NCBI GenBank assembly: GCA_049602155.1 | Contig: JBMYRH010000003.1 | Location: 301,871 to 365,870 of the forward strand | DNA: 64,000 nucleotides | Direction of reading: 5' to 3' | Source of the DNA: Myxococcota bacterium | GTDB lineage: Bacteria; Myxococcota_A; UBA9042; PHBI01; JBMYRH01 | Shown: one piece after another, positions 4,182-41,184 of the stretch | How positions within the stretch are numbered: position 1 is the stretch's first letter | Layout: each line of letters starts with the position of its first letter | The notes under the pieces: model-generated | Database searches by the model: none | What the model saw: the letters and a program-made list of their open reading frames with translations, nothing else | What the model was told of the DNA's origin: nothing | Made by a program: the position numbers and the translations under genes

Positions 4182-4186
4182 AGCGC

Positions 4187-4762: not shown

Positions 4763-4805
4763 GACGTCCCCTCTGCGTGGCCCTCAGACCTCGCAAGCTC
4801 TGGGC

Positions 4806-10355: not shown

Positions 10356-13300
10356 GTGGCGTGTAGGGCGTTAATATCGCTGATTTTCTGTGTTGGACTT
10401 CTGATTCCAACGCGAGCGGTCCATGCGATCAACGTCCCGGTGAGCGCCTTCCTAGATCCGGCCGCTTGGACAGGTAACGCGAACGTTCCGATTCAGCTCC
10501 CGGCGAGCGTGGTCAACGTGATGGACGCGGTGCGCATCACAGACTTCAGCAGCAAAGGCTCGCCTGGCGCTTACACCGAGCTCGGCTTGAGCTGGAAAGG
10601 GCAAATCAAGCTGCCCATCCCGCTCCTCGGAGCGGGGCTTTACCTCGGCAAACCCGACCTGAACGGACACGCCCTCGGGACCCCCGCCGCGGAGAGCTCT
10701 GGCGTCGATAACGGCATACGGATGCGGTACGAATACGAAGAGAAGGGGGAAGAGGCGGACGGGCCTAAAGTGCTGAAATTCAGCGGTACCGAGGTCGACG
10801 GTGTGGTCATGACCTTCGAGTTGCCGGGCGCAGGTACCGGTCTGCTCACCAGGGAGGACAATGGCCTCCCTGCAGCCATCGAGGTCGTCGCGACCGAGGA
10901 CAACCCCATCCAAGCGACCACGGAGGGGGACTTCTTCGTCCCGAACCTGACCCTGCCCCGCACTTTGGTCGGGAATTCAGGAGTGGTCATCTCCGCCACG
11001 AACGTCGCGATCGACATGCACACCACGATCAGCCCGGATGGCGTCGATAACGACGGCTCCTGGCGCGGCGTTTTCTTGGGCTCGGTCGTCATCGACTTGC
11101 CCGACAACCTCGGCGGCATCGACGGCATCGAGGCCGAGAACTTCATCATTGAAGACGGTGGCGTGACCGGGACCGTGGACGTCAACTTCGACGGGGGCGG
11201 CATGGACGTCGGCGGCGGAATGACCGCCTCGTTGAACCAAGTCTGCGTGGCCTTCACCATCGACCCAGTGACCGGGGAACAGAAGGTCGACCTCTGCGGG
11301 GTTGGCGGTCAGATGGACCTCCCGAGTGATTACTTCTCCTGTATGGAGGACCCAGACGCCACGCTCCCTGTCGATCTCGCCTACGATCAAGGGGTGTTCA
11401 CCGGCATGCTGGACACCGAAAACCTGCCGGCCAACTGCCGCGAGTTAAGCTTTGGCTCCGATGCCGGGGGGGCCTTGGTCCTTGGAGAGACCGAGACCGC
11501 GACCGTGAACTGCGCCAGCTATGACATCACGGCCGAGAAGACCGCGCGCTTTATCCGCGTCGACGTCGTCACGAGCCCCGAATTCGAGATCACCCTGAGC
11601 GGCTTTGACGCCAGCACCGTCCCCGGAGAGCAGAACGAGCCCAACCTGAACAGCAGCGCCCCCATCGGCGTCTTCAAGCCATCAGCTGACAAGCTCAAGC
11701 CTATCTTGGACGACGCCCAAGGCAAGCCCGTCGATGGCATCGTGATGCCGGAGACCGTGGTCATAGGTGCCGAAGGTGTCTGCATCGGTTGCGGTGCCGG
11801 TGAGGGACTCTCAATGCCTCCGATGGAGGTCGGCTCAAGCGGCGTCGAAGTCTGCGCGGACCAGGTGGGCCTCGACTTCCACGAGGGGCTTAACAAGGCC
11901 GAGGATACCGTGAACGCCGGTGATGATGAGTGGATGGGGCTCTATGCGGCGTCCCTTGAGGTCACTGTCCCCTTTAAGAAGCAAGATGGCTCAAGCCTGA
12001 CGTTCGGCGCGACCCACATGTCCATCGGGAGCGGCGGAGTCTCGGGCAACTTCGTGGTCAACGCTGGCATCGATCCAGTCACCTTCGGGGGCTATGACGT
12101 CTCGCTGAGCGCCATCCAGATGAGCTTCGTGCACAACACGCCGACAGGCTTCGGTGTCTACGGCGACCTCAACGTGCCCTTCTTCGACGAGACCCTCGGC
12201 ATCAGCTTCGTCCTAGACGGACAGGGCGGCTGGCTCGCTCAGATCAGCGCGAGCGGCAACGGCGTCGACCTCTCGAAGAACCTCGGTCCGCTTGAGCTTC
12301 GATTATTGGTCCAGCGCATCGCCTTTGGGTGTGAGGCAGGCGACTGCGTGATCGCGCTCGACGCGACGACCGGTATCGGCTCCCCGGTCTTCGACACGGG
12401 CGATATCAACCTCCAGAACCTTCAGATCACCAGCGACGGCGAGGTCAAGCTTGACGGTGGATGGATGCAGTTCCCCGATCCCCGCATCATTAAGATCGCC
12501 GGCTTCGAGTATGAGCTGACCAAGTTCGGATTTGGCACCCGCGATGGCGCGAGTCCCCAGGAGGCCAGGCGCTGGGTCGGCCTTGGCGGAAACTTCCAGC
12601 TGCAAGACGTTCTACCGGTGACAATCGACGTCAACGAGATGAGCTTAAGCTGGGAGTACCAGGACGCCAGCGAGAACCCAGTCGCGTTCGCCAACCCGAA
12701 GCTTGAGATCGCCGACATCAAGCTCGGCATGGAGATCCCCAACGTCCTGAGCCTCGACGGTACGTTGCGCTTCTGCGAGGCCGGCAAGGTCGGCTGTGGA
12801 GACGGCACGACGGCGCTGGGAAGCAAGTGGTTTGAGGCCGCCGTGGACGTCAGACTCAAGCAGCCCGCCATCGAGCTCAAGGGGCAGCTCATGGTGGGCA
12901 AGAACCCAGGCGGCGCGGGTCTCGACCCATTCACGTTCTGGTACGCCCAGATCGACGCACAGCTGCCGTCGGGTATCCCCGTGCCGGCGACCGGGGTCTC
13001 CATCTATGGGTTCTCAGGGGGCTTCGGCAAAAACGTTGCGCTTAACGTGACTGATGCATTCCCGCGTCAACTCGACCTCGCTAACCCGGTCTCTCCGACC
13101 AGTGGGACCTTCGTCTTCATGGCGGGGGTCACCCTCGGCTCGGGGCACGACAACGGCTTCGTCATCAACACCGACGTCAAGCTCTTCGTCCAGATCCCAG
13201 GGCCCGTCATCGTCTTCAACGGGCAGGCCTGGGTCGCGACCGAACGCAACAAGCGTAAACTCCCGCCCTTGTTGACCGTCGACATCATCTTCGACGGCAT

Positions 13301-16300
13301 CAACAAGGAGTTCATCTTCAGCCTCGCGGCCCGCTATCAAAGCGGCGAAGGCAAAGACAACGTCGAGGAAAACGGCAAGATCGTCGACGCCTCGGGCAAC
13401 ATGGAGGTCTTCCTCTCTCAGACCGACTGGCACGTCTACTTGGGGACCAAGGCCCACCCGATCTCCGCGAAGATCGCCAAGGACCTCCTGGCGATCAACG
13501 CCGAGGCCTACGTGATGTTCGGCACTCAAGTGCCTTTTGATGCTGGAATTATGCCCGGCTTCCTCGTCGGCGCCGGGATCCATATGCAGAATTCAGGCGA
13601 AGCCCTCGGGGGCCTCGTCGGCTACGAATTCGGGCTCTACGCCCACGGCGAAATGGGCCTCCAGATGCAGCCTAAGCATGTGTTCGTCGTGGCCGGGATC
13701 GGGGGCAACGCGCGGGTCTGGGTCGGCCCTCTGAGCCTGGGGCTCGCGATCGACGCTATGCTCCGCGGTGAGACCCCCACACCGATGCTGCTCGACGCGA
13801 ACTTGGCCGTCGCGATCGAGCTCCCTTGGCCTTTCAAGGACATCTCGTTTGAGGTCGGTCTGCACTGGGAGAAGCCGTCTGATCCACCCGAATTCCCCAA
13901 GCCGCTTAAGGAGATCGTGTTCGAGAGCGAGGCGACCGGCCGCACGGTGCGCGCCTTCCCAGAGGACGGCGGGACACCTGATGTATGCCCGACGGGCACC
14001 ATCACCGACGTCCCCTTCGACGCTATCACCCAGCTGACCTTCAACCGCCGAATGGACTGCCGGGACGGAAGCTCGGTCCGCCCCTGCCCCGCCGGCACCG
14101 AGTCTAACTCGTACTTCCAAGACGAGACCGCAGGACATTATATCGCCAACCAGTTCACCGGGTGGAGCGTGACTCAAGCGGGTGGGGCCGCCGCAGACTT
14201 AACCCTCGTCGGCGGTTGGGGCGGCGCACTGGGCGCACCCGAGAGCGTCGGCACGACCGCCCAACGCCGCTATGAGACCTTCTCATTCCGCCCGACACAC
14301 TTCGCCTTCGAGGAGTGCCCAGGAGAGTGGAGCAACGCGACTGATCCTGATCAGTGCACGACGACCACCGTCCCTAACGGCGAGTGTCGGGTGCTGAGCA
14401 AGACCGCCGCTTGTGTCCAAGGGGGTGCGGGGTGTCACGGTCGCCTTTACGGTCAGACCAACCTCGTCGGTGACAAGGACCAGTTCAAACACAGCTCCTC
14501 TGACGCCGCCCAACCTGGACCGGGCTGGGTCGCGAGCCCCGTCACGAACCGACCCGCAGACATGGACAGCCTGACACCGGAAGCACACCGCACATGGAAG
14601 CACACCGTCGACCTACCGCCGAACGCTTGCCTCGCCGAGGCCAAGCTGGTCCTGAAGTGGAAGCGCGTCGGCCAGCAGCTACAGTGCGCACCGTGCGCCA
14701 ACCTGCCGGGTTCGCCGAGTCGACCGACCGAGACCCTCTCATTTGCAAGCGCATCCAAGGGGCAGCGGGACTTCGACTTCTGTACCGAGGCCTTCACCGG
14801 GGCGATGTTTGGCGATTGCACTCCATCCGGCGACGGCTACATCGGCGCGCTGGAGGGCCAGGCGACCCTGGACCTGGCTGACTTCCCAGAGGTCCTCGAC
14901 ATGGTCGAAGACGGTCAGCTGACCGTCAGCATCGCTGGCAACACCGCCATCGATTTTGCCGAGCTCGTCGTCAGCTATCAGATGAGCAGCGGTGGACAAG
15001 CCGCCACCTTCACTGGGCGGTACAACTCCAATCACCAGTCAGCGATCTACTACGCCCTCGGTGACCAGCTCGTGACCTTGGGGCAGGGGCAGATGCTCTA
15101 CAACCCCCCCGAGTGCCTCGCGGCCGGCGCACAGGAGGACGTCTGCTGCACCGCGCCGCTGAACCCCATCGCCTGTGAGGGCCCCAACGGCGACTGGTTG
15201 GTGACCGGCTACCACGTGAACGCCGCGGGCGACCTCTTCCAGATGGGCATGGGTGATCCGGTTCCGACCAACCCCGTCGGGAGCTGCGCGACCCTCGACG
15301 ACGCGATGATCGCGCCTTGTCCATCGAACGACCAAGCGCTGTGCCCATCGCTCGGCTCGGGCCCAAAGACCTTCTGCACGCTCTATGACGGCACGGCGGT
15401 CGCCCCCTCAACCGTGACCACCACCCCGGACTGCAGCAACGACGACGGGACTGGGCCGGAGTACTTGCCAGGCGCCCCGTTCTGCCCCGCCACGACGTAC
15501 GAGCTGAACCTCGTGATGAACCAAGACACGACCCCTGTCGATGGCGGCAGCACGTCGTCATCGGGCCAAACCTGCACGGTCACCTACCAGATCGAGGACC
15601 CACCCGAGGCGCTCTCGCCTTACGTCGCTTGGACCTACCCCGCGGACGCCCAGCGCGTCGTCTACACCGCCAACGACCTGATGGTGCAGTTCAATTCAGG
15701 CGTCATCTGTGAGCTCTACAGCTGCTGCTCAGGGGCGCCACTTGCGATCGAGCTCCGGAGCGCTGACGCGGTGTTGCCCACTGACGTCACCCCGGGTCAG
15801 CTCTACAGCGTCGGGTGCAACGAGGTGTCTGATATCACTGCGCTCTTCGACGATCCCAACGACTGGGAGCCCGTCGGTCAACAAGACGACTTCCTCATCT
15901 TCACCCCAGGTGAGATGCGTGACCTCGGCGCGGATTCCAGCCACTGCGTGGCCGGGACTTGTGTCTGTGACCCGGGCTACAGCCCAACTGTCGACGGCGA
16001 CTGTGTCGACATCGACGAATGTGCCACCGCCAACGGCGGATGTGGCGACCCGGCGCTCTACAGCTGTACAAACACCCTGGGCAGCTTTGAGTGCGCTGAC
16101 GTGGATGACTGTCAACAGAGCAGTGTGTGCCTCGATCCAGCCGACTGCGTCTTGTCCAACGGGGGATGCCCAAAGAACACCACCTGTCACAACCAGGTCG
16201 GCGCGCCGCGGACCTGCAGCTGCGAGAACGGGTTCGAGCTGAACCCCTCGGGAGACTGCGTGCCTGTGACTGGCTGTGAGACCACCACATGCCCGACAGG

Positions 16301-17306
16301 GAGCTACTGCGTGACCCCAGCCCAGCCTTGCACTGCGACCGACTGCAGCGATCCTGCCCTCGGCTGCGTGACGATCAATGTGCCGTGCGAGATCGGCGAG
16401 TGCGTCTGCGCGCCAGGGTGGGCCACCAACAGCGAGGGCGGCTGTGACGACGTAGACGAGTGCGCGACAGGCAATGGTGGCTGCGGCGATCCGCTCTACT
16501 ACAGCTGCACCAACACCCCTGGGAGCGTCCTCTGCGCCGACATCGATGAGTGTGAGGTCAATCACGGCGGCTGCGACCCCGCCGCATGGTGCACCAACGT
16601 CGATGGGGCTGCGGCGACCTGCGCCTGTAAACCCGGCTACGATTCAGACGGGCTCGGCGGATGCGTCGTCAACGCCACGTGCGCAGGGGTGGTCTGCGGC
16701 GACACCGCACCGCCGAATGAGCACTTTACCCTCGCGGCGCTGGCGGCGAACACGAAGTACTTCATGGCGATGCCCAACCCCCTGGGGACCAGCTCAGACG
16801 CCCCCCTCCTTGAGACGAGCTTCGTCACCAGTCAGTTCGAGACCTTCACCGAAGCGCTAGAGAGCGCTCTCGCGGTCGCCTCTTCGGACAGCACGCACAT
16901 CACGCTGACCACCCCCGAGGCGCTAGACTGGCTGCACACCAGTGCGGTCCTGGACCCTGACGGGACCGAGAACACCGGCGACGAGATCGACCTGGACCGC
17001 CTCCGATTGTCCGAGGACACCGACTCCATCCACGTCTTCGAGTTGGCGAGCGCCTCCGCCGCAGCTGGAGGCACCCTCCGCCTGACTTACCACAGCCGCC
17101 CACACGGGCGCTGCACCTGCACCGATGACGTCGACTGCCCCGGGGAAGGACGCTGCATCAGCGGCGTTTGCCAGGCAGGCCACATCTGCGATGAGGACCT
17201 TGAGTGCCCTGCGTCAGGCACCTGTGATCTCAGCGGCCCGGTAGTTCGTCGAGGCGGCACGGTGATCTCCGAGGACGTCAACCTGGTGCTGGAGGACGAG
17301 CTATGA
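10356..17306 (+). CDS. Giant secreted protein A (2316 aa): beta-rich core plus C-terminal cbEGF-like/Cys-rich region
   Basis: GTG start followed by signal peptide ACRALISLIFCVGLLIPTRAVHA. Uninterrupted 6.95-kb ORF with high GC3. Core motifs are shared with protein E (29799-34322). cbEGF-like DIDECATANGGCGD..YSCTNT.GS..C modules lie near 15945-16680. Confidence 0.85.
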   Translation: MACRALISLIFCVGLLIPTRAVHAINVPVSAFLDPAAWTGNANVPIQLPASVVNVMDAVRITDFSSKGSPGAYTELGLSWKGQIKLPIPLLGAGLYLGKPDLNGHALGTPAAESSGVDNGIRMRYEYEEKGEEADGPKVLKFSGTEVDGVVMTFELPGAGTGLLTREDNGLPAAIEVVATEDNPIQATTEGDFFVPNLTLPRTLVGNSGVVISATNVAIDMHTTISPDGVDNDGSWRGVFLGSVVIDLPDNLGGIDGIEAENFIIEDGGVTGTVDVNFDGGGMDVGGGMTASLNQVCVAFTIDPVTGEQKVDLCGVGGQMDLPSDYFSCMEDPDATLPVDLAYDQGVFTGMLDTENLPANCRELSFGSDAGGALVLGETETATVNCASYDITAEKTARFIRVDVVTSPEFEITLSGFDASTVPGEQNEPNLNSSAPIGVFKPSADKLKPILDDAQGKPVDGIVMPETVVIGAEGVCIGCGAGEGLSMPPMEVGSSGVEVCADQVGLDFHEGLNKAEDTVNAGDDEWMGLYAASLEVTVPFKKQDGSSLTFGATHMSIGSGGVSGNFVVNAGIDPVTFGGYDVSLSAIQMSFVHNTPTGFGVYGDLNVPFFDETLGISFVLDGQGGWLAQISASGNGVDLSKNLGPLELRLLVQRIAFGCEAGDCVIALDATTGIGSPVFDTGDINLQNLQITSDGEVKLDGGWMQFPDPRIIKIAGFEYELTKFGFGTRDGASPQEARRWVGLGGNFQLQDVLPVTIDVNEMSLSWEYQDASENPVAFANPKLEIADIKLGMEIPNVLSLDGTLRFCEAGKVGCGDGTTALGSKWFEAAVDVRLKQPAIELKGQLMVGKNPGGAGLDPFTFWYAQIDAQLPSGIPVPATGVSIYGFSGGFGKNVALNVTDAFPRQLDLANPVSPTSGTFVFMAGVTLGSGHDNGFVINTDVKLFVQIPGPVIVFNGQAWVATERNKRKLPPLLTVDIIFDGINKEFIFSLAARYQSGEGKDNVEENGKIVDASGNMEVFLSQTDWHVYLGTKAHPISAKIAKDLLAINAEAYVMFGTQVPFDAGIMPGFLVGAGIHMQNSGEALGGLVGYEFGLYAHGEMGLQMQPKHVFVVAGIGGNARVWVGPLSLGLAIDAMLRGETPTPMLLDANLAVAIELPWPFKDISFEVGLHWEKPSDPPEFPKPLKEIVFESEATGRTVRAFPEDGGTPDVCPTGTITDVPFDAITQLTFNRRMDCRDGSSVRPCPAGTESNSYFQDETAGHYIANQFTGWSVTQAGGAAADLTLVGGWGGALGAPESVGTTAQRRYETFSFRPTHFAFEECPGEWSNATDPDQCTTTTVPNGECRVLSKTAACVQGGAGCHGRLYGQTNLVGDKDQFKHSSSDAAQPGPGWVASPVTNRPADMDSLTPEAHRTWKHTVDLPPNACLAEAKLVLKWKRVGQQLQCAPCANLPGSPSRPTETLSFASASKGQRDFDFCTEAFTGAMFGDCTPSGDGYIGALEGQATLDLADFPEVLDMVEDGQLTVSIAGNTAIDFAELVVSYQMSSGGQAATFTGRYNSNHQSAIYYALGDQLVTLGQGQMLYNPPECLAAGAQEDVCCTAPLNPIACEGPNGDWLVTGYHVNAAGDLFQMGMGDPVPTNPVGSCATLDDAMIAPCPSNDQALCPSLGSGPKTFCTLYDGTAVAPSTVTTTPDCSNDDGTGPEYLPGAPFCPATTYELNLVMNQDTTPVDGGSTSSSGQTCTVTYQIEDPPEALSPYVAWTYPADAQRVVYTANDLMVQFNSGVICELYSCCSGAPLAIELRSADAVLPTDVTPGQLYSVGCNEVSDITALFDDPNDWEPVGQQDDFLIFTPGEMRDLGADSSHCVAGTCVCDPGYSPTVDGDCVDIDECATANGGCGDPALYSCTNTLGSFECADVDDCQQSSVCLDPADCVLSNGGCPKNTTCHNQVGAPRTCSCENGFELNPSGDCVPVTGCETTTCPTGSYCVTPAQPCTATDCSDPALGCVTINVPCEIGECVCAPGWATNSEGGCDDVDECATGNGGCGDPLYYSCTNTPGSVLCADIDECEVNHGGCDPAAWCTNVDGAAATCACKPGYDSDGLGGCVVNATCAGVVCGDTAPPNEHFTLAALAANTKYFMAMPNPLGTSSDAPLLETSFVTSQFETFTEALESALAVASSDSTHITLTTPEALDWLHTSAVLDPDGTENTGDEIDLDRLRLSEDTDSIHVFELASASAAAGGTLRLTYHSRPHGRCTCTDDVDCPGEGRCISGVCQAGHICDEDLECPASGTCDLSGPVVRRGGTVISEDVNLVLEDEL

Positions 17307-20300: not shown

Positions 20301-21001
20301 CAAGCCGGGTCATCCAAACCGCCTACTTGCTCGGTGGCGCCCCTGGGACCATCACGTGGCGGCCCCCTGGTGACCTCAACCAAGTGGCGCTCATCGTCCG
20401 ACATGACGCCCTGAGCACGGTCAACACCTCGACGCTTATTCGGCCGAATCCGACCCCCCAAGTCATCGATGGCTACGACGTGGTCACACTGAACCCTGGG
20501 GCGCCGGACGAGCGCCTAAGCCTGCGCGACACGCCCCCGATCGACGCCCACGACTACTGCTACGCCCTGAAGGTGAGTGACGCGGCAGGCAACACCTCGC
20601 CCTACTCCGTGCCGCTCGTGGGTCGCTCTGTGGACATGACGCCGCCGGCGCCGCCAACCAACCTGGCCGTTGCCCGGGACAGCGGTGTCGCTACGCTGTC
20701 TTGGGGACACGACGAATCCCCGGTGCGGGTCCGCGTGAAGCGCAGCACCGCAGGCCCCAACGGGCCCTGGGTCACCTTGGACAAGGCCGCGGTAGCCATC
20801 GAGGTCGGCGACGGCAGCATCACGGCGCTCCCGCCCGAGAACTTCGAGCACTGGATCGATGGCGCGGGCTATGGCTACAGGTACAGAGATATGAGTGCTG
20901 AGCTGGGGCGTGAGTATTGGTATCGCGTTCAGATCTACGACGCGACCGGCCTCAAGTCCGGGCGTGATGACGGCAAAGTACTCTTGGGGGCAAGCGACTG
21001 A
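17303..21001 (+). CDS. Membrane-anchored FN3-repeat protein B (1232 aa)
   Basis: ATGA overlap with the A stop. N-terminal TM WPLLLLVTVMTLSGLFVFY. FN3-like units (e.g. PPAPPTNLAVARDSGVATLSWGHDESPVRVRVKRS...YWYRVQIYD). N-terminal pattern resembles protein F. Confidence 0.8.
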   Translation: MILSFKPTSWPLLLLVTVMTLSGLFVFYERPAETAPDLSQVVPEPQTPPLALVGVRDIAPPGAPAQVAPLPPLRRTYTPDCGATAASTQNLAPHNLLRWAFEPDLGFPTEGYDLYRCCGVEAAPPPGDPGWTKLNKDRIRPPQTHAEGQVFVSGIGLLPDGTRNVIGPRITATEWTTYCNVLEQTTGLPSDCPPPPPPGAVDPTAQTFEVSQDPASFLLLASMKPEIATLLGLYWVDDKLESPSCIYRVVGHWSGGIAHESVTGPLIEAPLSPPNGLAAEQTPQPGSFSCEALGGPTQAAGNPNVAMNLTWNLPVVQSMVAAADSPIMYNVCREAPGDGNLVQISRATYDDGTGPQLVESPMIVPRVPSFDGQGNPLLTPSGDPLMVLPDVFYTDHLDDDPLAIGAYTYAITGLDIFGRESLPSPPVQLPLIDPIGPPSPVNVKAQTVQPPTSLTADVELSFDWTAMEAEAAPDAAAFKVFRRVDTPDLTMNGQCPIMPQDDPANWELVATIPVGAYAHLYNSYNPLPVDEQPALNPVLPVQRYALTDTLTLPAGPPVRHFFYRVVAYDAPSQNPGPPSGAVNGHVVDMAPAVPPDDVTPIYSYSEWDSSVQVHLLWSAGATTGSDPMGYKVMRSLRALACATSSQCPKDCDQDGCVPTPCHPSGFCGDGPDLGPTGHRQEDREAMLTNGVEPYNATGSLEVLGKLRALAVLGNLFYRDPATGARVNVAPSCATGDQSACSAELATAIDGRTQYHQDTIPADASGQVFFYRVMAVSRAGLQESEDTVASTVSAPFSIQAPDFIAPTRPELVGAIADGVTGGAVSIQWAVGPESDTLVAGAGYTVERADVGWARCENQRAVCCELTSGTGSTFHWLERGACASQGGQRLDTPATVQVFKEITNTGVILTINDPADAAATSEVIIANELGGFCVPEVPVCCELPASPYPDYLMSDAAMCNTLGGSPWKPLTVGNSGTYTLDDLAPGRCYRVDVVPAGLKPDPSRVIQTAYLLGGAPGTITWRPPGDLNQVALIVRHDALSTVNTSTLIRPNPTPQVIDGYDVVTLNPGAPDERLSLRDTPPIDAHDYCYALKVSDAAGNTSPYSVPLVGRSVDMTPPAPPTNLAVARDSGVATLSWGHDESPVRVRVKRSTAGPNGPWVTLDKAAVAIEVGDGSITALPPENFEHWIDGAGYGYRYRDMSAELGREYWYRVQIYDATGLKSGRDDGKVLLGASD

Positions 21002-27330: not shown

Positions 27331-27334
27331 CCGG

Positions 27335-27361
27335 CGAAGGCCTAGCATGCGCTGGCCTTCG
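27335..27361 (+). terminator. Hairpin downstream of gene C
   Basis: cgaaggcc (27335-42) pairs with ggccttcg (27354-61), an 8-bp perfect stem, 5 nt after the TAG stop. No clear U-tract. Confidence 0.45.
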
Positions 27362-27397
27362 GCCTAGGCGCTGCAGAAATCTCCCCGTGAAAGAGGA

Positions 27398-27428
27398 GGC
27401 AGGAGCGACCGACCAAGGGGTCGCTGCC
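27398..27428 (-). terminator. Hairpin plus pyrimidine-rich tail downstream of gene F
   Basis: On the - strand, ggcagcgacc..loop..ggtcgc(tcc)tgcc is followed by tcctctttc. It lies ~80 nt after the F stop. Confidence 0.5.
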
Positions 27429-27505
27429 GAGTGCTCACCGGGTGCGTGGCCCACTGATCACGACGTGGCGTAGCCTGCAGCACCCGTGCGCGGTTCGAAG
27501 GCGAC

Positions 27506-29791: not shown

Positions 29792-29798
29792 GCGCCGC

Positions 29799-32700
29799 CT
29801 AGAATGTGTGACTGAAGGAGTGGTTGACGTTCACCCCAAAGCTAGTAACGAAATAAGCTGAACCAGCGACCCTCAGGCGGTTGGTGGAGGTCTGGCTCGC
29901 CTGGAAGCTCGCGCTCGCGGAGACCGAGAGGTAACTGAAGCAGCTTGAGCAGCCAAAGGGGCAGGGCCACTTGACCTTGACGTTGCCGTTAAACGAGGCA
30001 TGGACACCAAAGCTGCCACCACTCATCCCGTCGTTATCAAAATTCGCCCCGAGGCTCCCGCCGATAGACATCCCGATACCGCCGCCGGCACCTAGGCCGA
30101 GAGAGTTCGAGGTCGCTTGGGCGGTCGAGCAGGTGGCCGAGTTGAATCCGCTCGGGTACCTGAAGGTGACCGACCCACCCACTTCGATTGATCCGCTGAT
30201 GTGCCCGTTGAACGAGTTCTCAAGGACCGCAGGGTTCGTCGAGACCTGAGAGCTAAAGTTGAAGGTCCCTTGAACCTCAAGGAAGCCCCAAAAGAGGTTG
30301 GCGACGATCGGCGTCGGGGTCTCCACAGACCACCCACCCTCATCGGACTCATAGAGCACGGTGCCGTTCAACTCAAAGAACCAGGGGTCACCGCGGGGTA
30401 TCTCAACGTTGGTTGAGATACCCCCAGCCATTGAGTCGCCGCCCAGCTCGTAGTTGTTGATAAAGACCGTGCCGCTGATCCAGGGGTCGACCTGCGGGAT
30501 CGAGATGCCCGCTGCACCGGAGAGCAACGTTGGACCACTGCCAAACTGGACTTGGACATAGAGGTCGAAGCCGATAATCCCGGCCGGATCGCCGAGGCCG
30601 ATGCCCAAGCCGACGATGTAGTTCCCGAGAGATGGGTAGCCGGGTGCAGCGAGCGTCTCACCACTGCCGCCTCCCCCCCCAAAGGGCAAACAGACCTGGC
30701 CAGGGTCTGGTGGGCAGCCCGCGATGCCGTCCATCCCATAGTTGTAGCCTCCCGCGGCCGCGAACTTCTTCACGAAGGGGAGCGGGAGCCCCGCCGCGAC
30801 GATCTGAAGGTAGATGAACGTGAAGGGACTCGAACCGCTGAGCGCCGTGCCAACATCGATCGATGCGCCCACCGTCACCAGGCCGGCGATGCTCAGGTTG
30901 TTGATATAGCCAGTGAAGCGCGAGGTGGTCCCGTTATCTTCGTATGAGGCCTGGAAGGTCCCCGTGAGCGGCGCTTGCGTGAGCGCCCCAGTGATCTTCT
31001 GAATCGAGATCAGGCCAGCGTCATTGCACTTGAAATTGATGATCGTGAACTGACCAAGCGGCGGGATCACCAGCTTGGCCGAGAACGTCAACTCGCTGCC
31101 TGCGGTGATATAGCTCGCGTTGGTCACCGAGAGCTCGAAGCCCTGGAACCCCGTCGTAAACGAGGCCATGGAGAATTCGCTTATCCCTAGCCCAGTCGCC
31201 CCTGGAAGGTCCTCAAGCTTGACCACGACCCCCTCGATGGCGGTGTCAAAGTCGGGGTGTTGGGCCGAGGCCGTACCCACGAGCGAGATGAGGTCAAAGT
31301 CGTAGCTGAAGACCCCGGTGAGGCTCAGGTTACTGATCTCCATCCCCACCACTTCAATTGTGCTCGCGCCCGTCGCGCAGCATGAGCAGCCGAGGCCCAA
31401 GCCCAAGCCCACAGTCACTTGGGTCGGGGCGAAGTCCAAGACCAAGTCTATGCTGCCGTCGAGCCCTGCGAAGCCAGAGGTTGAGAGCGCACCGCCCCCT
31501 GAGAGGAAGTCCAGTTGACTGTTGGCGATGTTGTAGTTGAAGCCCACGGAGAGGTCGCAGATCTGCGCCGTGACCCCGAAGGTCGTGAACGTAATCGGCG
31601 CCGCTTGGACAAGGGTCGCCTCCAGCACCCCTGTTGGCTGCAGCACACCGGTCGCTGAGGCGAGCACGTCGGTGCCCCTGACGAGATCGATGTGGATCCC
31701 CTCGATCCCACCGAAATTCCAGTTCCCCGTCCAATCTGTATCGCCACCGAACGCGAAGCTGAAGGTCCCGTAAAGCCCGTGACGTAAAATCGCGTTGGTG
31801 CCCAGGTTGGCGTCCGCTGTGGTCGCGACCTCGAAGTCGACGATACCTGAAAGCTGCCCTTGATTATTCAACGCCAAGGTGACCTCGGTCACCTTGCCCT
31901 CGACGACCCCGAAGGTCCCCACAGCCTGCTCACCTTCCCAGGTCACGACCGCGGACGCGAATTCCTGCGAACCACCGCTGCCGGCCACTGGCGCCTGCTC
32001 TTTCCAAGCCAGGGTCACTTGGCTCAAATCCATCGTCTTGACGAAGAGCGTCTCGGTTTTGATCTCCAGGCTCGGTGGCACGTACTCGTAGCTGCACAAG
32101 CCCTGGTCGTCTTGCCCCGTAAACGCGACGCCACCAGAGGTCCAGTCAACGCTGAACGGCACCAGAGTCGAGTTGCTGATAGCGAAGGCCGATGGCGTCA
32201 GGAGGTCAAGACAGGACTCAAAGCCAGCGACGGGATCGTTGATGTCATCGCTGCCTTGGCAGTCCCCCGGGCACATCGAAGGGTTCTCGTTGATCTCGCA
32301 GACCCCATTGCCGCATTCACTGTCAATCGCCGGGCAGTTGGCGTTGCAGCTGTTGTCTGCGAGGGCGATACAGTCCTCTGTCCAGTTGCCGGTGCAGCAC
32401 GCGGAGTCGATGGCGCATACGCAGGCCGCGATGCCCTCCGTCTCGCAGCCTGGGCTACCATTCTCTGTGCAGCAGCCCCCCTCGTAGTCGGCGGGGCCGG
32501 AGTTGCTGCCCCCTTGCAAGACGGTGTTGGCAGAGGCGGCGCAGGTCGCGCCGTTTGTGTAGCCAAACTGAAGCACAATTTCCTGGAACTCCACGGGCGC
32601 CGTCGTAGCCCCGTCCAGGCCCGCGCGGAGGAAGACTTGTGAAGGGACCACCTCGCCCGCGGCCAGGTCCCACTGGTATGGGAGCGTGATTGGGCCGGTG

Positions 32701-34322
32701 CAGTCGGGGTTCAAGAAGACCTCAACGTTGCCTTGACCGAGTTGGAGCGTGGCCGTCCCTTGGCAGATCGCGCTCGGAGGCGGGATGTCGAGGCTGAGGT
32801 TGACCGCTGTGAGCAGGTCACCGGAGCCGCACGCCGATGCTGAGGTGTCGCCGAAGGACACCTCTCCGGTGCACGAGGAGATCTCAAGGTTGCAACCCGG
32901 TGGAGAAGAGGTGACCCGGATCCAGCTCTCGTGGACGTCCGTCTGAGCTGCGAAGTCCGTGACGGTCACGACGACCTTGTACTCTCCTTCGGGGAAGCTC
33001 GCCGTGTCGATTGCACCCTCCGTCTCCTCCTCTTCGTCTCTCCAGGTCTCGGGCAGGCAGTCGGCGTCGGGGCGCGCTCGGAGGTTCGCGAGGTTGTAGA
33101 CGTGCGGGGAGGTCTTCGTGACCGGCGGCTCGAAGGGGTTGTAGAGCAGATCGCTCCCGATATCGGATTCTCCAGAGCCATCGAGCCGTGCGTTCGCTTC
33201 CGCCAAGCAGTAGGGCCCGGCCTGATAGGGGGTCGCGAGCATCGGGTGGATGTAGTCGCTCACCGTGGGCGATGGCGGGGGCGCAAGGGGATCGAGGCCA
33301 AAGATCTCGACGTCGATCTGCTTGATCGCCCTCGTCGGATCTGCTGCCGCATCAACCGCCTCGCATGTGACCACCGGCGGGGCGGTCTCCGTCCCTCCGT
33401 CCGCGTCACAGCGCGGCGGACCCACGTCGCGAACGCCGACGGTAATGTCGAAGAGGGCCGGATCTCCAGGGACGCTCGCCGTCGGCACGACGACCGCGGG
33501 CACCGAGGTCCCGCCAATGTTGACCGTCTGGATCCCAAGGGCGTTGTTACCGCTCATGCTGCCGTGAGCATACATGGTGACCTGGGTGATCTGGGGCGGC
33601 GTTGTATCCCCATCCAGCGCCTGAACCGGGGCGCTCTGAGGCGCCAACCCGAGGTTCAGGTAGATCATCGGGTCGAGGTAGTATCCCTTAGGATCGAGGA
33701 CAGTGATGGTGATGCGCCCTCGAGGGCCCAGCGAGGCCGCGCCGATCCCTCGGGGTTTGCCCAGCACGTCGCCCATACGCACCACGTAGGCCTCGGGCTC
33801 CTCTTGGCTGTACTTGATGAACTTCTCTGAGAAGATCTGCGCGTCGCCTACCTCGGCCTCCGATGGGTTCAGCGGGTCATCGGCCTCCTCCGCCAAGTAG
33901 AGGGCCTTGACCGCCTTTCGGACCTCACTGGCCTGCAACCCGCCGATGAGCACGTATTGAGGGACGGCTTTGACCTCCTCAATCTCGTTGATTTGGTCCT
34001 TTTTAGGCTTCAGTGTCACCCGCACAGTGCCGTAGCCCTGGGCTTGGTCGCACCACACACCGGGGGGGCACCACTCCATGATGCCGTCCACTGGCGAGGA
34101 GATCGGGATCTCCTTCGAGATCCACATGCGCACGCCGGTGCTCATGTGGACCTGCTCATCGTCGTCTTCGTACAGCTGGCCGAAGTAACGCTCTAGGTAG
34201 AATCCGCCGTTGGCGTTCAGGTCAAAGGCAGTGGGGACCAAGAAGGGCTTCTTGCAGCCGGCCGCAAAGAGGCCAAGGGCTGCGACGATCAGGAGTGCTG
34301 CGACGAGGCGAATACGGGTCAT
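29799..34322 (-). CDS. Giant lipoprotein E (~1507 aa), beta-rich, paralogous core to protein A
   Basis: ATG 34322 forms an ATGA overlap with the D stop; the track lists a GTG at 34331. It gives MTRIRLVAALLIVAALGLFAAGC (lipobox). Gly/Ser/Thr/Val-rich repeats. Ends ...VTSFGVNVNHSFSHTF. Confidence 0.85.
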   Translation of the reverse strand: MTRIRLVAALLIVAALGLFAAGCKKPFLVPTAFDLNANGGFYLERYFGQLYEDDDEQVHMSTGVRMWISKEIPISSPVDGIMEWCPPGVWCDQAQGYGTVRVTLKPKKDQINEIEEVKAVPQYVLIGGLQASEVRKAVKALYLAEEADDPLNPSEAEVGDAQIFSEKFIKYSQEEPEAYVVRMGDVLGKPRGIGAASLGPRGRITITVLDPKGYYLDPMIYLNLGLAPQSAPVQALDGDTTPPQITQVTMYAHGSMSGNNALGIQTVNIGGTSVPAVVVPTASVPGDPALFDITVGVRDVGPPRCDADGGTETAPPVVTCEAVDAAADPTRAIKQIDVEIFGLDPLAPPPSPTVSDYIHPMLATPYQAGPYCLAEANARLDGSGESDIGSDLLYNPFEPPVTKTSPHVYNLANLRARPDADCLPETWRDEEEETEGAIDTASFPEGEYKVVVTVTDFAAQTDVHESWIRVTSSPPGCNLEISSCTGEVSFGDTSASACGSGDLLTAVNLSLDIPPPSAICQGTATLQLGQGNVEVFLNPDCTGPITLPYQWDLAAGEVVPSQVFLRAGLDGATTAPVEFQEIVLQFGYTNGATCAASANTVLQGGSNSGPADYEGGCCTENGSPGCETEGIAACVCAIDSACCTGNWTEDCIALADNSCNANCPAIDSECGNGVCEINENPSMCPGDCQGSDDINDPVAGFESCLDLLTPSAFAISNSTLVPFSVDWTSGGVAFTGQDDQGLCSYEYVPPSLEIKTETLFVKTMDLSQVTLAWKEQAPVAGSGGSQEFASAVVTWEGEQAVGTFGVVEGKVTEVTLALNNQGQLSGIVDFEVATTADANLGTNAILRHGLYGTFSFAFGGDTDWTGNWNFGGIEGIHIDLVRGTDVLASATGVLQPTGVLEATLVQAAPITFTTFGVTAQICDLSVGFNYNIANSQLDFLSGGGALSTSGFAGLDGSIDLVLDFAPTQVTVGLGLGLGCSCCATGASTIEVVGMEISNLSLTGVFSYDFDLISLVGTASAQHPDFDTAIEGVVVKLEDLPGATGLGISEFSMASFTTGFQGFELSVTNASYITAGSELTFSAKLVIPPLGQFTIINFKCNDAGLISIQKITGALTQAPLTGTFQASYEDNGTTSRFTGYINNLSIAGLVTVGASIDVGTALSGSSPFTFIYLQIVAAGLPLPFVKKFAAAGGYNYGMDGIAGCPPDPGQVCLPFGGGGGSGETLAAPGYPSLGNYIVGLGIGLGDPAGIIGFDLYVQVQFGSGPTLLSGAAGISIPQVDPWISGTVFINNYELGGDSMAGGISTNVEIPRGDPWFFELNGTVLYESDEGGWSVETPTPIVANLFWGFLEVQGTFNFSSQVSTNPAVLENSFNGHISGSIEVGGSVTFRYPSGFNSATCSTAQATSNSLGLGAGGGIGMSIGGSLGANFDNDGMSGGSFGVHASFNGNVKVKWPCPFGCSSCFSYLSVSASASFQASQTSTNRLRVAGSAYFVTSFGVNVNHSFSHTF

Positions 34323-37300
34323 TGTAGACACCCCCCAGGCGGGCCTTCATCGAACTGAGGCGCGCAGAAATCGCACACATCATCGCAGCAGTCACCAAAG
34401 TCAAAGCAGCCAGGATCGCAAGCACAATTGCCAGCGTATCCGCCGCACTGCCCTGCGCAAGAGCCGTCGATTACGCAGACCCCATTGGGGCTGCACTGCT
34501 CGCCGTCACCGCACAACCCACAGGTGCCGCCACAACCATCAGGCCCGCAGGCGCTGTCCGGCGCGCAGCTGGGTTCACACACCGGGCACTGCCCGTTGGT
34601 ACACTGTCCACCGTCAGCGCAGGTCCCACAAGAGCCCCCGCAGCCATTGGGTCCACACTGCTTACCGTCGCAGTCAGGCTCACACCCCCCCGCGCACCCG
34701 TTGGGCGGCGCCTCCAAGAAGAGGTCTCCGCATGCGTCACAGATGTCATCGCAGCAGTTCCCAAGGGCGAAGCAGAAAGCGTCGCAGGCGCAGGTCTGAG
34801 CGCTCGCGCCGCAGAGCCCCCCGCAGGAGTCAGCCGCCAAGCACTCTCCAAAGGGTGAGCAATCCTGCCCAGCCTCGCACGCGCCACAGCTGCCACCACA
34901 GCCATCATCGCCGCAGGCCTTGTCCGCGCAGTCGGGGACACACGCACCGCACACGCCAGCATGACAGACCGCGCCATCGGCACAGGACCCGCACGTTCCC
35001 CCGCAGCCATCCGAACCACAGCCCTTGCCGTCGCAGTCGGGGACACACGCTCCACAGAGCCCCTGAGCGGCGAGCCCTGGGCAAGCATCGCAAGCGTCGT
35101 CACAACAGTCACCAGTCTCAAAACACTCACCGTCGCAGAAGCAGCCACCGGGCGCAGCGCCACCACAGTAGCCGGCGCAGCTCGTCGCGTTCGTACACTG
35201 ACCGGATGGCCCGCACGCCTCCCCGTCGGCGCACACACCGCAGGTGCCTCCGCAGCCATCCGGACCACAGCTCACGCCCTCGCAGGCCGGTTGGCAGACC
35301 TCACATTGCCCAGCCGCTGTGCAATTTTCACCCTCCGCGCAGGTCCCACAGGTCTCCGCGCAACCGTCCGATCCGCACACCTTGCCTTCGCAGCTCGGCT
35401 CACACAGCCCGCAGGCGACCTGACCGGGCAGACTCAAGATGGGACCACAGGTCTCACACACGTCGGCGCAACAATCGCCGTTATCGAAGCAGCTGGAGTC
35501 GCAATAGCACTGACCCGGCGAACCGGAGCATTGCCCAGCGCAGGAAGCCGGGTCGGTGCACGCACCGAGCAAACAGTAGAGCCCATCATCACAGGCGCCG
35601 CAGCTCCCTCCACATCCATCAGAGCCACACGCTTTGCCCTCGCAGACGGGCGTGCAGAGGACGCAAGCCCCTGCGGCACAATAGTCGCCGACCTCACACT
35701 CCCCGCACTGACCGCCGCAGCCATCTGGGCCGCAGGCCTTACCCTCACACGAGGGGACGCACGGCGCACACGCACCCTCATCGTCACACACCTCACCAGC
35801 GTCGCAGGAGCCACACGCGCCACCACACCCATCGGGGCCGCAGAGCTTACCGTCGCAGCTCGGCTCGCACGGCGCGCAGCCCTCCGGCGCGGGGCCATCA
35901 AAGGCCCCTGAGCATGCATCGCAGAAGTCCGCACAGCAGTCCCCAAAGAGGACGCAATCCGCGTCGCACACGCAGTCACCGCCGACGTCACCGCAGCGGT
36001 CCACACACGAGCCCGACGAGACACATTGGAGGGAGAGCCCGCACACCTCACCTTCACCGCACGCACCGCAGCTGCCTCCGCAGCCATCTGGGCCGCAGGA
36101 GGCGCCTTCGCACGAGGGCACACACACGGTGCACGCCCCGTCATCGCAGGTCTGGCCCTCGGCGCAGTCGCCGCAGCTCCCGCCACAGCCGTCATCACCG
36201 CACACCGCGGCACCACAGTCCGGGACACAGGGTTGCCCGCAACCAACAGGCGTCGGCTCGGGGTAGACATCGACACACACGTCGCAGAGGTCGTCACAGC
36301 AGTCGCCCGTGATTTGACACGTGATCGAGCACGAGCAGCCGCCAGCGTCCAAGGAGCCGCACTTTCCAACGCAGGAGCCCGAAGCCATGCAGAGCCCATC
36401 CGCGGTGCAGAGGACCCCTTCGGCACACGCGCCACAGGTTCCGCCGCAGCCGTCGTCTCCGCATGCTTTGCCGTCGCAGCTCGGCTCGCATGCATCGCAC
36501 TTGTCCCCCGACACAGAGCACTGTTGGCCTGCCGGGCAGAGGCCGCAGAGCGTCCCGCAGCCATCATCACCGCACACTTTCCCGTCGCAAGCCGGTTGGC
36601 AGAGCGTGCAGCTCACTGGCGCATCATCTCCGCACACCGGGCAGACATCCGGACAGCACGTGCCCTTAGTCGCGCAGTCTGGGTCGCAGTCGCAGAGGGC
36701 CCCTAAGGTCCCACAGCGGTTCACGCATGAGGAGGGATTCACGCACTGCCCCTCAAGGTCGCAATAGGTCGAGTCGTCACAGGCGCCGCAGCTGCCGCCG
36801 CACCCGTCGTCACCACAGGTCTTGCCGTCGCAGCTCGCGACGCAACCTTCGCAGGCAAAGGCCGGCGAACAGGTGGTGCCCTCCGCGCACTCGCCACAGG
36901 TGCCGCCGCACCCATCGTCACCGCACGCCTTATCCGCACAGTCGGGCGTGCAATCGCAGCCAGCGATCACCACGCCGACGCAACCATCTGGCGTGCAGGC
37001 ATCGTCTGAGGTGCACGGGTCATCATCGTCGCAGGTGCTCCCGGCCTCGGCCGAGACCTCGGCACACGCTCCGTCCGCGCAGATGGCCACCATGCACGGC
37101 CCGGAGAGCTCAAAGTCGACGCACTCCTCATCAGAGACGCACCCACTCACGTCGAGGGCCGATGCATCTCCGGTCGCATCGGTCGTATCGAGCGCCGGGC
37201 CAACGTCGGCGTCTTCTGCGTCGGATGGGGCGTCGGGGACATCAGGCTCTGGCGCGACATCCTCAGCGTCCTCGGGGGGCGTCACCACATCGGCAGTGTC

Positions 37301-37564
37301 ATCAACCGGGGGCACGTCCGTGGTGTCTTCAGGGGGGGCGACGACGGCGTCATTGACGTCAAGCTCCGGGACAAGCGCGTCAGAGGCGTCAGCCTCTGGC
37401 GTGATGTCCGCCGACACAGCGGTGTCCTCAGGTGCCTCGGTGTCCGTCGGCAGTGGCGAGTCCTCGGGACCACACGCAGCTAGACAGGCGCAAAGAAGCA
37501 CCATCCGGAAGGTCACCGAGCGCTCCAAACAGGAGACACGCCTTTGATCGTCAATTGCCCGCAT
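34319..37564 (-). CDS. Hyper-Cys-rich repeat lipoprotein D (1081 aa)
   Basis: Lipoprotein signal MVLLCACLAACG; an alternative start at ATG 37504 is possible. Acidic Pro/Asp/Glu linker. By my count, 15 C..C.GK.CG.DGCGG.CG.C modules are interleaved with 7 SC.G.CG....C.CD..C...GDCC.D.C..C modules. Confidence 0.85.
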   Translation of the reverse strand: MRAIDDQRRVSCLERSVTFRMVLLCACLAACGPEDSPLPTDTEAPEDTAVSADITPEADASDALVPELDVNDAVVAPPEDTTDVPPVDDTADVVTPPEDAEDVAPEPDVPDAPSDAEDADVGPALDTTDATGDASALDVSGCVSDEECVDFELSGPCMVAICADGACAEVSAEAGSTCDDDDPCTSDDACTPDGCVGVVIAGCDCTPDCADKACGDDGCGGTCGECAEGTTCSPAFACEGCVASCDGKTCGDDGCGGSCGACDDSTYCDLEGQCVNPSSCVNRCGTLGALCDCDPDCATKGTCCPDVCPVCGDDAPVSCTLCQPACDGKVCGDDGCGTLCGLCPAGQQCSVSGDKCDACEPSCDGKACGDDGCGGTCGACAEGVLCTADGLCMASGSCVGKCGSLDAGGCSCSITCQITGDCCDDLCDVCVDVYPEPTPVGCGQPCVPDCGAAVCGDDGCGGSCGDCAEGQTCDDGACTVCVPSCEGASCGPDGCGGSCGACGEGEVCGLSLQCVSSGSCVDRCGDVGGDCVCDADCVLFGDCCADFCDACSGAFDGPAPEGCAPCEPSCDGKLCGPDGCGGACGSCDAGEVCDDEGACAPCVPSCEGKACGPDGCGGQCGECEVGDYCAAGACVLCTPVCEGKACGSDGCGGSCGACDDGLYCLLGACTDPASCAGQCSGSPGQCYCDSSCFDNGDCCADVCETCGPILSLPGQVACGLCEPSCEGKVCGSDGCAETCGTCAEGENCTAAGQCEVCQPACEGVSCGPDGCGGTCGVCADGEACGPSGQCTNATSCAGYCGGAAPGGCFCDGECFETGDCCDDACDACPGLAAQGLCGACVPDCDGKGCGSDGCGGTCGSCADGAVCHAGVCGACVPDCADKACGDDGCGGSCGACEAGQDCSPFGECLAADSCGGLCGASAQTCACDAFCFALGNCCDDICDACGDLFLEAPPNGCAGGCEPDCDGKQCGPNGCGGSCGTCADGGQCTNGQCPVCEPSCAPDSACGPDGCGGTCGLCGDGEQCSPNGVCVIDGSCAGQCGGYAGNCACDPGCFDFGDCCDDVCDFCAPQFDEGPPGGCLQ

Positions 37565-41183: not shown

Positions 41184-41184
41184 C

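Follow-up and report, generated by a model that had tools for sequence, protein, structure and literature searches.

A probable Sec-exported branch of the DUF6603 superfamily and its conserved gene partners in a Myxococcota bacterium

Genomic organization of the locus

We analyzed six adjacent large genes, designated A to F, in a 64,000-nucleotide (nt) stretch of DNA from a Myxococcota bacterium (assembly GCA_049602155.1, contig JBMYRH010000003.1, positions 301,871 to 365,870 of the forward strand), referred to below as the window. The genes form two convergent operons, A-B-C and D-E-F (Table 1), which had been described in an initial annotation made from the sequence alone. All six open reading frames (ORFs) were found at the positions proposed there, E being taken from its ATG start at 34322; the longest ORF of this gene begins at a GTG codon at 34331, 9 nt upstream. 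The gene junctions were likewise reproduced, with ATGA overlaps at A/B and D/E, a TGATG overlap at B/C and a 7-nt gap at E/F. The 175-bp spacer between C and F contains the two hairpins reported for it, but no T-tract terminator was found in this spacer, its folding is nothing unusual in comparison with shuffled sequence (z = -0.72), and the hairpins are unexceptional as terminators.

The measured composition agrees with the earlier description of two giant Gly/Thr-rich and two Cys-rich proteins: Gly accounts for 11-12% and Thr for 7.6% of residues in A and E, and Cys for 5.5% in C and 18.9% in D. Export signals or anchors comprise a signal-like N-terminus in A, a single N-terminal hydrophobic segment in B, and lipoboxes in D and E. 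The initial annotation had also noted the lack of an ATPase, a two-partner secretion (TPS) or type I secretion system (T1SS) partner, an usher and an enzyme; in Pfam, NCBIfam and PADLOC searches none of these, and no transporter domain, was found in the six genes. Searches against PHROGs, PADLOC, NCBIfam and PDB sequences returned nothing informative for A, B or E, and in Pfam and NCBIfam neither B nor E has any domain above the cut-off.

Protein A comprises a signal peptide, a DUF6603-like all-beta core, an EGF-like region rich in Cys and, at the C-terminus, a further conserved domain; a partial duplicate of the core is located upstream of the full one. In protein B, a hydrophobic N-terminal anchor or signal precedes a conserved N-domain, and the repeats that follow resemble diverged FN3 modules and remain below the gathering score of Pfam fn3 (13.3 bits, E=0.1). 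Protein C combines a signal peptide, an N-domain, Cys-rich modules, six acidic repeats of the MopE type, which probably bind Ca2+, and a C-terminal FG-GAP region (Pfam Cu-binding_MopE, 1.7e-31; FG-GAP, 1.9e-19). The FG-GAP region also gives a sub-threshold match to TcdB_toxin_midN (18.7 bits with a cut-off of 24.8, E=0.0012), and no enzymatic or toxin domain was found in C by Pfam or NCBIfam.

Table 1. Coordinates of the A-F genes and of their principal features in the window
Feature	Position	Strand	Description and evidence
Gene A	10356..17306	+	2316 aa; ORF and signal-like N-terminus
A residues 198-349	10947..11402	+	Partial internal duplicate of the first ~150 core positions; second HMM domain, 42-48 bits
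A residues 480-1260	11793..14135	+	Conserved all-beta core, DUF6603-like superfamily; profile search, tblastn, AF2
A residues 1868-2099	15957..16652	+	EGF-like Cys-rich modules; Pfam EGF_3, EGF_CA and cEGF above cut-offs
Gene B	17303..21001	+	1232 aa; ATGA overlap (4 nt) with A
B residues ~90-420	17570..18562	+	Conserved N-domain, motif LRW...GFxLxR...W.KLN..I.P; defines B-type partners
Gene C	21001..27330	+	2109 aa; TGATG overlap with B
C residues 22-215	21064..21645	+	N-domain of exported-triad third genes; 31-33% identity, E 1e-22 to 1e-31, to L005/L006/L008
Spacer between the convergent operons	27331..27505		Two GC-rich hairpins
Gene F	27506..29791	-	761 aa
F residues 738-757	27521..27580	-	C-terminal hydrophobic helix followed by RRKA; read from sequence
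Gene E	29799..34322	-	1507 aa from ATG
E residues 909-1459	29946..31598	-	Probable very divergent DUF6603-like core; hhalign and HMM
E residues 1054-1333	30324-31163	-	Best-supported part of the E core; hhalign and HMM
Gene D	34319..37564	-	1081 aa; ATGA overlap with E
aa, amino acids; HMM, hidden Markov model; AF2, AlphaFold2. L-numbers denote sampled loci.

Affiliation of protein A with the DUF6603 superfamily

Among 1.84 billion cluster representatives, a profile of the A core (residues 480-1260) matched 3,092 proteins at E<=1e-3, 816 of them at E<=1e-30. The family members are typically 1,600-2,400 aa long, carry the core at approximately residues 150-900 and, where named, are all annotated as 'hypothetical protein'. 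A itself does not reach the gathering score of the Pfam DUF6603 model (PF20248), and its residues 1-1860 give no Pfam hit at E<=0.01. Its relatives P0014 and P0034 score 30-36 bits against PF20248 with a cut-off of 27, loci L012 and L013 carry precomputed DUF6603 hits, and PF20248-positive proteins are among the matches of the A-core profile, at 1e-145 to 1e-203. In addition, tblastn aligns residues 445-1229 of A over ~785 aa with WP_235091495.1 from Mycetohabitans endofungorum (RefSeq name 'DUF6603 domain-containing protein'), with 24.8% identity and an E value of 3e-42. By these profile and sequence comparisons A is a divergent, sub-threshold member of the DUF6603 superfamily, much of which is missed by the Pfam model of the same name.

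The closest relatives of A over residues 1-1850 are orthologues with 80-85% identity, followed by two proteins at 41-44% and two at 24-25%. A scan of GTDB species-representative genomes based on the A-subfamily alignment gave only one distant locus, in a Flavobacteriales metagenome-assembled genome, and nothing closely related to A; a metagenome scan with A-subfamily patterns gave no match. A literature search for DUF6603, PF20248 and IPR046538 found no paper. The initial annotation had called the apparatus possibly undescribed; this needs qualification, since part of the superfamily already has a Pfam entry, DUF6603, which is functionally uncharacterised. The new elements are the exported A-B-C triad and the divergent protein E.

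The export status of A distinguishes it from most of the superfamily. A signal-like hydrophobic segment is missing in 138 of the 141 top representatives with complete N-termini (~97%), and the B-like partners of signal-less core proteins likewise have no signal segment. The signal-less form, found also in a monoderm (Arthrobacter) and in an archaeon (Haloferax), represents the mainstream of the family, whose core proteins end in variable lectin-type domains. Signals on the core protein are present in the branch of A (A, P0010, P0011, P0014 and P0017), and the B-type and third proteins of the window and of loci L005, L006 and L008 carry them as well. Since ~97% of the family has no signal peptide, it appears very probable that the A-B-C operon belongs to a rare Sec-exported branch of a widespread, functionally uncharacterised system.

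The A core was modelled with AlphaFold2 (AF2) from a 40-sequence alignment, resulting in a predicted local distance difference test score (pLDDT) of 82, a predicted template modelling score (pTM) of 0.60 and ~42 beta-strands, which in the second half of the core are arranged as amphipathic hairpins of 15-20 residues. Foldseek comparison of this model with PDB and BFVD revealed a generic beta-meander only, with no match above a template modelling score (TM-score) of 0.25. The best PDB hits were SlpA, LptD, ushers and the ApoB100 beta-belt, with TM-scores of 0.17-0.25 and root-mean-square deviations (rmsd) >16 A, and the best viral hits had TM-scores <= 0.17. The barrel hits were reported with probabilities of 0.9-1.0 and E values from 1e-5 to 1e-3, yet they fall in the same TM-score range of 0.17-0.25. 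In the predicted structure, the A core is thus a confidently modelled all-beta unit that is devoid of an informative structural neighbor.

Conserved neighborhood of the core gene

The association of a giant protein gene with a partner gene, proposed initially as a possible conserved neighborhood, is borne out by the comparison of genomes and metagenomes. Core and B-type genes are adjacent in all 12 individually inspected loci (11 bacterial and 1 archaeal), with a B-like gene adjoining the core gene in L004-L013, L014 and L016. Scanning of metagenomic contigs with mainstream-core patterns yielded 49 further loci. A B-like neighbor was recognized by hidden Markov model (HMM) at E<=1e-3 in 26 of these, and 10 others make up a distant subgroup with a core protein of 2,400 aa and, after it, a protein of ~1,250 aa that hhalign identifies as B-type (probability 76%, E=2e-5). 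In 12 of the remaining 13 loci the contig is cut within 3 kb of the core gene, and the last one, L060, has ample upstream sequence and no B-like neighbor. The pair is therefore present in 36 of the 37 metagenomic loci with enough flanking sequence. With the HMM of the B N-domain, partners were recovered in every sampled locus (1e-9 to 1e-134), and neither the B-type partner family nor the C N-domain has a model in any library searched. The invariant element, as defined by these alignments, is a pair: one member is a giant protein whose all-beta core spans ~700 aa, the other a B-type partner in which the N-domain is followed by FN3 or LamG modules.

The complete A-B-C triad, in which the third gene shares the C N-domain, has a narrower distribution and recurs in Aminicenantes and in two metagenomic loci. 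The loci of the two relatives at 41-44% identity contain an A-like gene, then a B-like gene (43-49% identity), then a gene with the C N-domain. The core protein of the Aminicenantes genome (CP070627.1) shares 36.6% identity with A over 921 aa, the B-like protein that follows is 30% identical over 851 aa (HMM 3e-129), and the third protein, of 333 aa, carries the C N-domain (33% identity, 8e-22), so the triad is conserved in a second phylum. This Aminicenantes triad (locus L008) is flanked by polysaccharide genes (2396-6137) for a methyltransferase, a sugar transferase, a PIG-L protein and an oxidoreductase.

Gene order varies to some extent within the family. The B-type gene directly follows the core gene in every core-first locus (the window, L005-L008, L011, Haloferax and the distant subgroup), and the order of B-like gene, third gene and core gene was found in L004, L009 (Arthrobacter oryzae), L010, L012, L013 and a Mycetohabitans megaplasmid. 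The third gene, present in most sampled loci, is variable: PLD-like proteins are the commonest class (21 loci, ~40% of those sampled), whereas a ~900-aa protein of unknown type, a beta-helix protein and another unknown type each occur in 4 loci, as does the C-N-domain class (the window, L005, L006 and L008). In L014 (6317-19338; the Mycetohabitans endofungorum megaplasmid) and in 19 metagenomic loci, the PLD-like third protein, of the phospholipase D/nuclease superfamily, stands alone with ~500-600 aa or is the C-terminal domain within a protein of ~1,200 aa. In Haloferax mediterranei, plasmid pHME322 (L016, 2388-15501) encodes a DUF6603-like core protein of 1858 aa, a B-like protein of 1370 aa (HMM 5e-21) and a Baseplate_J protein of 1142 aa (Pfam 47 bits); no sheath, tube, spike or other contractile-system genes were found within ~30 kb of this triad.

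The mainstream triad of L012 (1170-25118) comprises a LamG-containing B-like protein of 2129 aa, an 800-aa protein and a DUF6603 protein of 1705 aa, and it adjoins genes for a TIR-domain protein, a phage integrase, an HTH_17 protein and an SpvB/TcdB/RHS giant similar to TcB-TcC. From this gene content, the surroundings look like a mobile or defence-type island.

Relationship between the two operons

The initial annotation had proposed that A-B-C and D-E-F are paralogous three-gene modules. Of this proposal, a remote similarity between A and E stood up to analysis, and the correspondences between B and F, between C and D and in gene order did not. BLASTP aligns residues 854-953 of A with residues 1165-1270 of E at 31% identity (E=0.002), a segment that covers both pairs of collinear motifs noticed earlier. 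When the families of A (8 sequences) and E (4 sequences) are aligned by hhalign, a single hit results (E=1.7e-4, probability 49%, 216 columns), and a broad core profile (155 sequences) gives a comparable one (E=1.6e-4, probability 50%, 261 columns by default), which greedy extension enlarges to 485 collinear columns between core positions 91-641 and E residues 909-1459. In control alignments with the core profile, the reversed E family, the B family and the F family gave E values of 0.36, 0.38 and 0.6, respectively. The core HMM finds the same place in all four E-family proteins with 7-22 bits, scores that are too low for a database-wide search, and none of the block-shuffled versions of these proteins (500 per protein) exceeds 3.2 bits. 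When all 221 ORFs of >=100 aa from the six reading frames of the window are compared with this HMM, it hits none but A and E. The collinear motifs are hence real and above chance, and the C-terminal ~450-550 aa of E probably represent a very divergent copy of the A core.

Protein E is a predicted lipoprotein (lipobox LFAAGC, Cys23) for which a search of 5.8 billion proteins gave only four homologues (>=67% identity). Its lipobox Cys is directly followed by Lys. E and its homologues terminate in ...TF with a C-terminal Phe (...HTF in E, encoded by 29799-29810 on the reverse strand; ...HTFD in one case), which resembles the beta-signal of outer-membrane proteins and is odd for a lipoprotein. Residues ~615-688 (32259-32480, reverse strand) contain a small Cys-rich domain, CCTENGSPGCE...CVC...CC, that is found as two tandem copies in the B-like protein of L006 (33-40% identity, ~1e-10); this sharing suggests domain exchange between core-type and partner-type proteins.

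Protein D is a lipoprotein in which an acidic linker is followed by 14 CGxDGCG units and six somatomedin-B-like GDCCxDxC units (a weak Pfam match to somatomedin-B). In protein F, a signal peptide is followed by an N-terminal half that is specific to the lineage, with one further homologue only, and then by FN3 domains and a C-terminal transmembrane helix. Pfam fn3 matches F at residues 425-515 (32.4 bits, cut-off 25), the FN3 part also matches the PHROG 'central tail fiber J', and the C-terminal tail gives a faint, sub-threshold hit to the NCBIfam sorting domain GVDTG_CTERM. The earlier description of both B and F as FN3-type proteins is therefore supported for F and remains sub-threshold for B, and the membrane anchors lie at opposite ends, the hydrophobic segment being N-terminal in B and C-terminal in F. 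The D-E-F synteny was seen in four close relatives only, and orthologues of D lie upstream of E in L001, L003 and the contig of P0002.

The N-terminal pattern said to be shared by B and F (LLRW...YDLYR...W.KLN..IRP and RLLW...IDILR...W.R..L.PIKP) can be aligned, but only at chance level. BLASTP between the two proteins gives E=0.29, and hhalign of the full families a probability of 0.6%; the hhalign of the N-domains lies exactly on the motif, though at E=0.058 and a probability of 0.9%. The probabilities over all hhalign runs are 0.2-0.9%, and searches with HMMs of the B family (E=0.54-0.69), of the B N-domain (E=0.084) and of the distant B2 cluster (E=0.76) were negative as well. F is accordingly not supported as a B-type partner, none of six tests having detected a relation to B. 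BLASTP found nothing between C and D, which have only Cys-richness in common, and the match between A and C runs through EGF-like Cys repeats only. The C N-domain was not found in D, E, F or any other ORF of the window, and the lack of this conserved N-domain of third proteins speaks against D as a counterpart of C. The gene order also differs, being giant, partner and Cys-rich protein in A-B-C and Cys-rich, giant and partner protein in D-E-F. By sequence comparison, no correspondence of F to B or of D to C could be demonstrated, and the D-E-F operon would be at best a very divergent partial copy of A-B-C rather than a clean duplicate.

Other genes in the window

The flanks of the six genes contain sugar-nucleotide and glycan genes, an FG-GAP/ASPIC protein gene, a rhomboid protease gene and others. 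Polysaccharide genes encoding a GDP-mannose dehydratase, a fusion of an epimerase with a family 2 glycosyltransferase (GT2), a deacetylase and a methyltransferase lie on both sides of A-F (5758-6846 and 40095-43856), and the occurrence of polysaccharide genes next to both this locus and the Aminicenantes triad may be a coincidence. An ORF of 1477 aa at 43858-48291 (reverse strand), probably a lipoprotein that starts near residue 104 (...LFASAC), contains 13.4% Cys and ~23 tandem repeats of ~43 aa that end in [WFY]D.GDC and resemble Notch/LNR repeats, with no Pfam hit at E<=1; it is the third hyper-Cys-rich giant protein near both operons. The rhomboid-family protease is encoded at 54881-55540 (reverse strand) amid genes for a cytidylyltransferase, a GFO/IDH/MocA oxidoreductase and a DegT aminotransferase.

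Comparison with known systems

The initial annotation had not been able to map the locus to a characterised system. This assessment stands, as Pfam, NCBIfam, PHROGs, PADLOC, PDB and Foldseek were all uninformative in this respect. The nearest relatives are the DUF6603 giants such as WP_235091495.1, which resemble A in their giant size, homologous core and B-type neighbor; unlike them, A carries EGF-like modules and a Sec signal peptide, and a C-type protein takes the place of the PLD-like one as third partner.

The Tc (ABC) toxin complexes share with this system three adjacent giant genes and, with its mainstream form, the lack of signals and the presence of lectin-like variable domains; the faint TcdB_toxin_midN match in the FG-GAP region of C and the TcB/TcC-like gene near the relative in L012 add to this likeness. 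A Tc complex was rejected, as no VRP1/TcA, TcA_TcB_BD, SpvB, TcdB_mid or RHS domains were found in A-F. The shell of TcA is largely helical, in contrast to the all-beta core of the A-B-C system, and Foldseek comparison of the A core with the TcB-TcC cocoon gives a TM-score of 0.10.

Long antiparallel meander sheets are shared by the A core and LptD, SlpA and the ushers of chaperone-usher systems, which provide its best PDB hits; these proteins differ from it in the low TM-scores and the lack of any sequence relation, and the core family also occurs where there is no outer membrane. Adhesins of the T1SS and of the type V secretion system (T5SS)/TPS classes are similar in size, in their beta-rich composition, in their FN3, EGF and FG-GAP modules and in acidic repeats that probably bind Ca, but they are devoid of the core and the B N-domain that define the A-B-C system. 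A T1SS, TPS or chaperone-usher adhesin was also rejected since no RTX/T1SS signal, ABC/membrane fusion protein (MFP)/TolC components, TpsB/POTRA, haemagglutination domain, autotransporter barrel or usher/chaperone was found in A-F or the flanks.

The Baseplate_J third gene of Haloferax and the tail-fibre match of the FN3 part of F recall contractile-injection and phage-tail baseplates. Foldseek of the A core gave no hit to baseplate proteins, and a contractile injection system was rejected, with no sheath, tube or spike genes near any sampled locus and with the clusters of the paper on haloarchaeal contractile injection systems being unrelated. The identity of a phage structural protein was rejected, as tblastn of the family against 50,697 phage genomes gave no match; the core family likewise had no match in PHROGs. 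A known anti-phage defence system was rejected on the basis of PADLOC, whose models match none of A, B, E, F, P0012 and the middle gene of L004.

Proposed function and alternative explanations

We propose that the core and the B N-domain would form the structural heart of a hetero-complex, because they are the only parts conserved throughout the family. Their strict adjacency, their translational coupling and the co-variation of their export signals lead to the same proposal. Variable modules would be displayed on, or recruited to, this scaffold and would supply specificity or activity; they would include the lectin-type C-terminal domains of core proteins, the LamG and FN3 modules of B-type proteins, and the PLD-like, beta-helix or C-type third proteins. 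In the exported branch, Sec signals and domains typical of an oxidising compartment on A, B and C lead us to expect an envelope or surface location. The complex might be tethered through the N-terminal hydrophobic segment of B, with A providing the scaffold and EGF-like modules and C providing acidic repeats and an FG-GAP propeller, and it may bind external ligands such as glycans, other cells or matrix. D-E-F could then be a second surface assembly, anchored by lipid and by a transmembrane helix, that reuses a degenerate core. We assign a probability of roughly 0.45 to this explanation as a whole, which is a compromise between its two parts: the identification of the genes is likely to be correct, whereas the mechanism of an envelope or surface complex is doubtful.

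Several observations weigh against this explanation. The A core has no informative structural neighbor (TM-score <= 0.25), and the crossing of the outer membrane by a protein of 2,316 aa is unexplained. The hhalign probability for E and the core is ~50%, and the AF2 model of E residues 880-1507, built from a four-sequence alignment, has a pLDDT of 40 and is unusable for a fold search. Some loci of the family are located on mobile islands beside TIR, integrase and toxin-antitoxin genes; together with the lack of signal peptides in most members, this means that the ancestral role may be other than surface adhesion. The surface apparatus envisaged in the initial annotation is plausible for the exported branch, and its suggested functions in adhesion, prey contact or matrix cannot be assumed family-wide.

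The alternatives differ from this explanation in the history of the operons or in the function of the complex. D-E-F could be a full paralogue of A-B-C that arose by ancient duplication of the module, with F corresponding to B and D to C after divergence beyond recognition. Such a history would account for E being the only other ORF of the window hit by the core HMM and for the translational coupling in both modules; it is also in line with the B-type gene directly following the core gene in every core-first locus, with the only hhalign alignment of B and F falling exactly on the conserved N-terminal motif, and with F ranking highest of all non-members in the search with the B N-domain HMM (E=0.084). 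We consider it rather unlikely, given that B and F remain at chance in BLASTP, HMMs and three hhalign runs, that D lacks the C N-domain, that gene order and anchor topology differ, and that D-E-F is limited to close relatives. As the main rival to the proposed function, the core and B could act as a carrier or translocation scaffold for the third protein, in an effector-delivery or toxin-like complex that acts on other cells after export or release. The variable and often enzymatic third gene (PLD-like in 21 loci, beta-helix in 4), the variable lectin-type domains of core proteins, the mobile islands with TIR, integrase, toxin-antitoxin and TcB/TcC-like neighbors at some loci, and the one locus with a Baseplate_J third protein would all suit this function, as would the giant beta-barrels and beta-belts among the weak best Foldseek hits. 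It is unlikely in view of C, which contains no enzymatic or toxin domain, and of the lack of an apparent immunity-like gene, of matches in phage genomes or PADLOC and of contractile-system genes near the Haloferax triad; the structural likeness to barrels is also very low (TM-score 0.17-0.25).

An improbable variant is that the A core is itself a very large outer-membrane beta-barrel or groove, acting as a translocon or lipid conduit in its own right, by which the remainder of A and its partners would be exported or anchored. Its ~42 long amphipathic strands, the SlpA, LptD, usher and ApoB100 hits and the lack of another exporter encoded nearby are compatible with this, and so is the C-terminal Phe of E, as the beta-signals of outer-membrane proteins end in this residue. 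These hits have TM-scores of only 0.17-0.25 with rmsd >16 A, the one-face amphipathic pattern equally fits a sandwich or groove, and signal-less cores occur in Arthrobacter, a monoderm, and Haloferax, an archaeon, without an outer membrane or the barrel assembly machinery (BAM). Finally, the six genes might encode independent surface proteins that happen to be adjacent, the likeness of A and E being due to convergent beta-rich composition. Large secreted proteins tend to be numerous in genomes with EGF, MopE, FG-GAP and Cys-rich repeats, and another Cys-rich giant lipoprotein is encoded at 43858-48291 of the window. This view is very improbable overall and is largely refuted for A-B-C by synteny, since the A-B(-C) adjacency is kept from ~25% to 85% identity across phyla and in one archaeon; the start/stop overlaps and an A/E signal that beats shuffled, reversed and unrelated-family controls also speak against it.

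Conclusions

By combining profile searches with the comparison of gene neighborhoods, we described a gene pair encoding ~3,000-5,000 aa in total that is represented by thousands of protein clusters, extends from Actinomycetota to Haloferax, and has no literature or structural relative that we could find. It is conceivable, at somewhat less than even odds, that the core and its B-type partner form the heart of a hitherto unrecognised multi-protein machine whose all-beta fold is new and whose third subunit is interchangeable, being a PLD-like enzyme, a beta-helix protein, a protein with Baseplate_J or a C-type adhesin, distributed across bacterial phyla and at least one archaeon, and that the genome studied here would possess it both as the exported triad A-B-C and as the hyper-divergent, lipid- and transmembrane-anchored D-E-F. 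The exported branch fixes the compartment, with Sec signals and disulfide-type domains on all three proteins, and A-B-C is a well-delimited group of three proteins suited to localisation, pull-down and deletion experiments. For the mainstream form, Mycetohabitans and Haloferax mediterranei are cultured hosts, the latter being genetically tractable.

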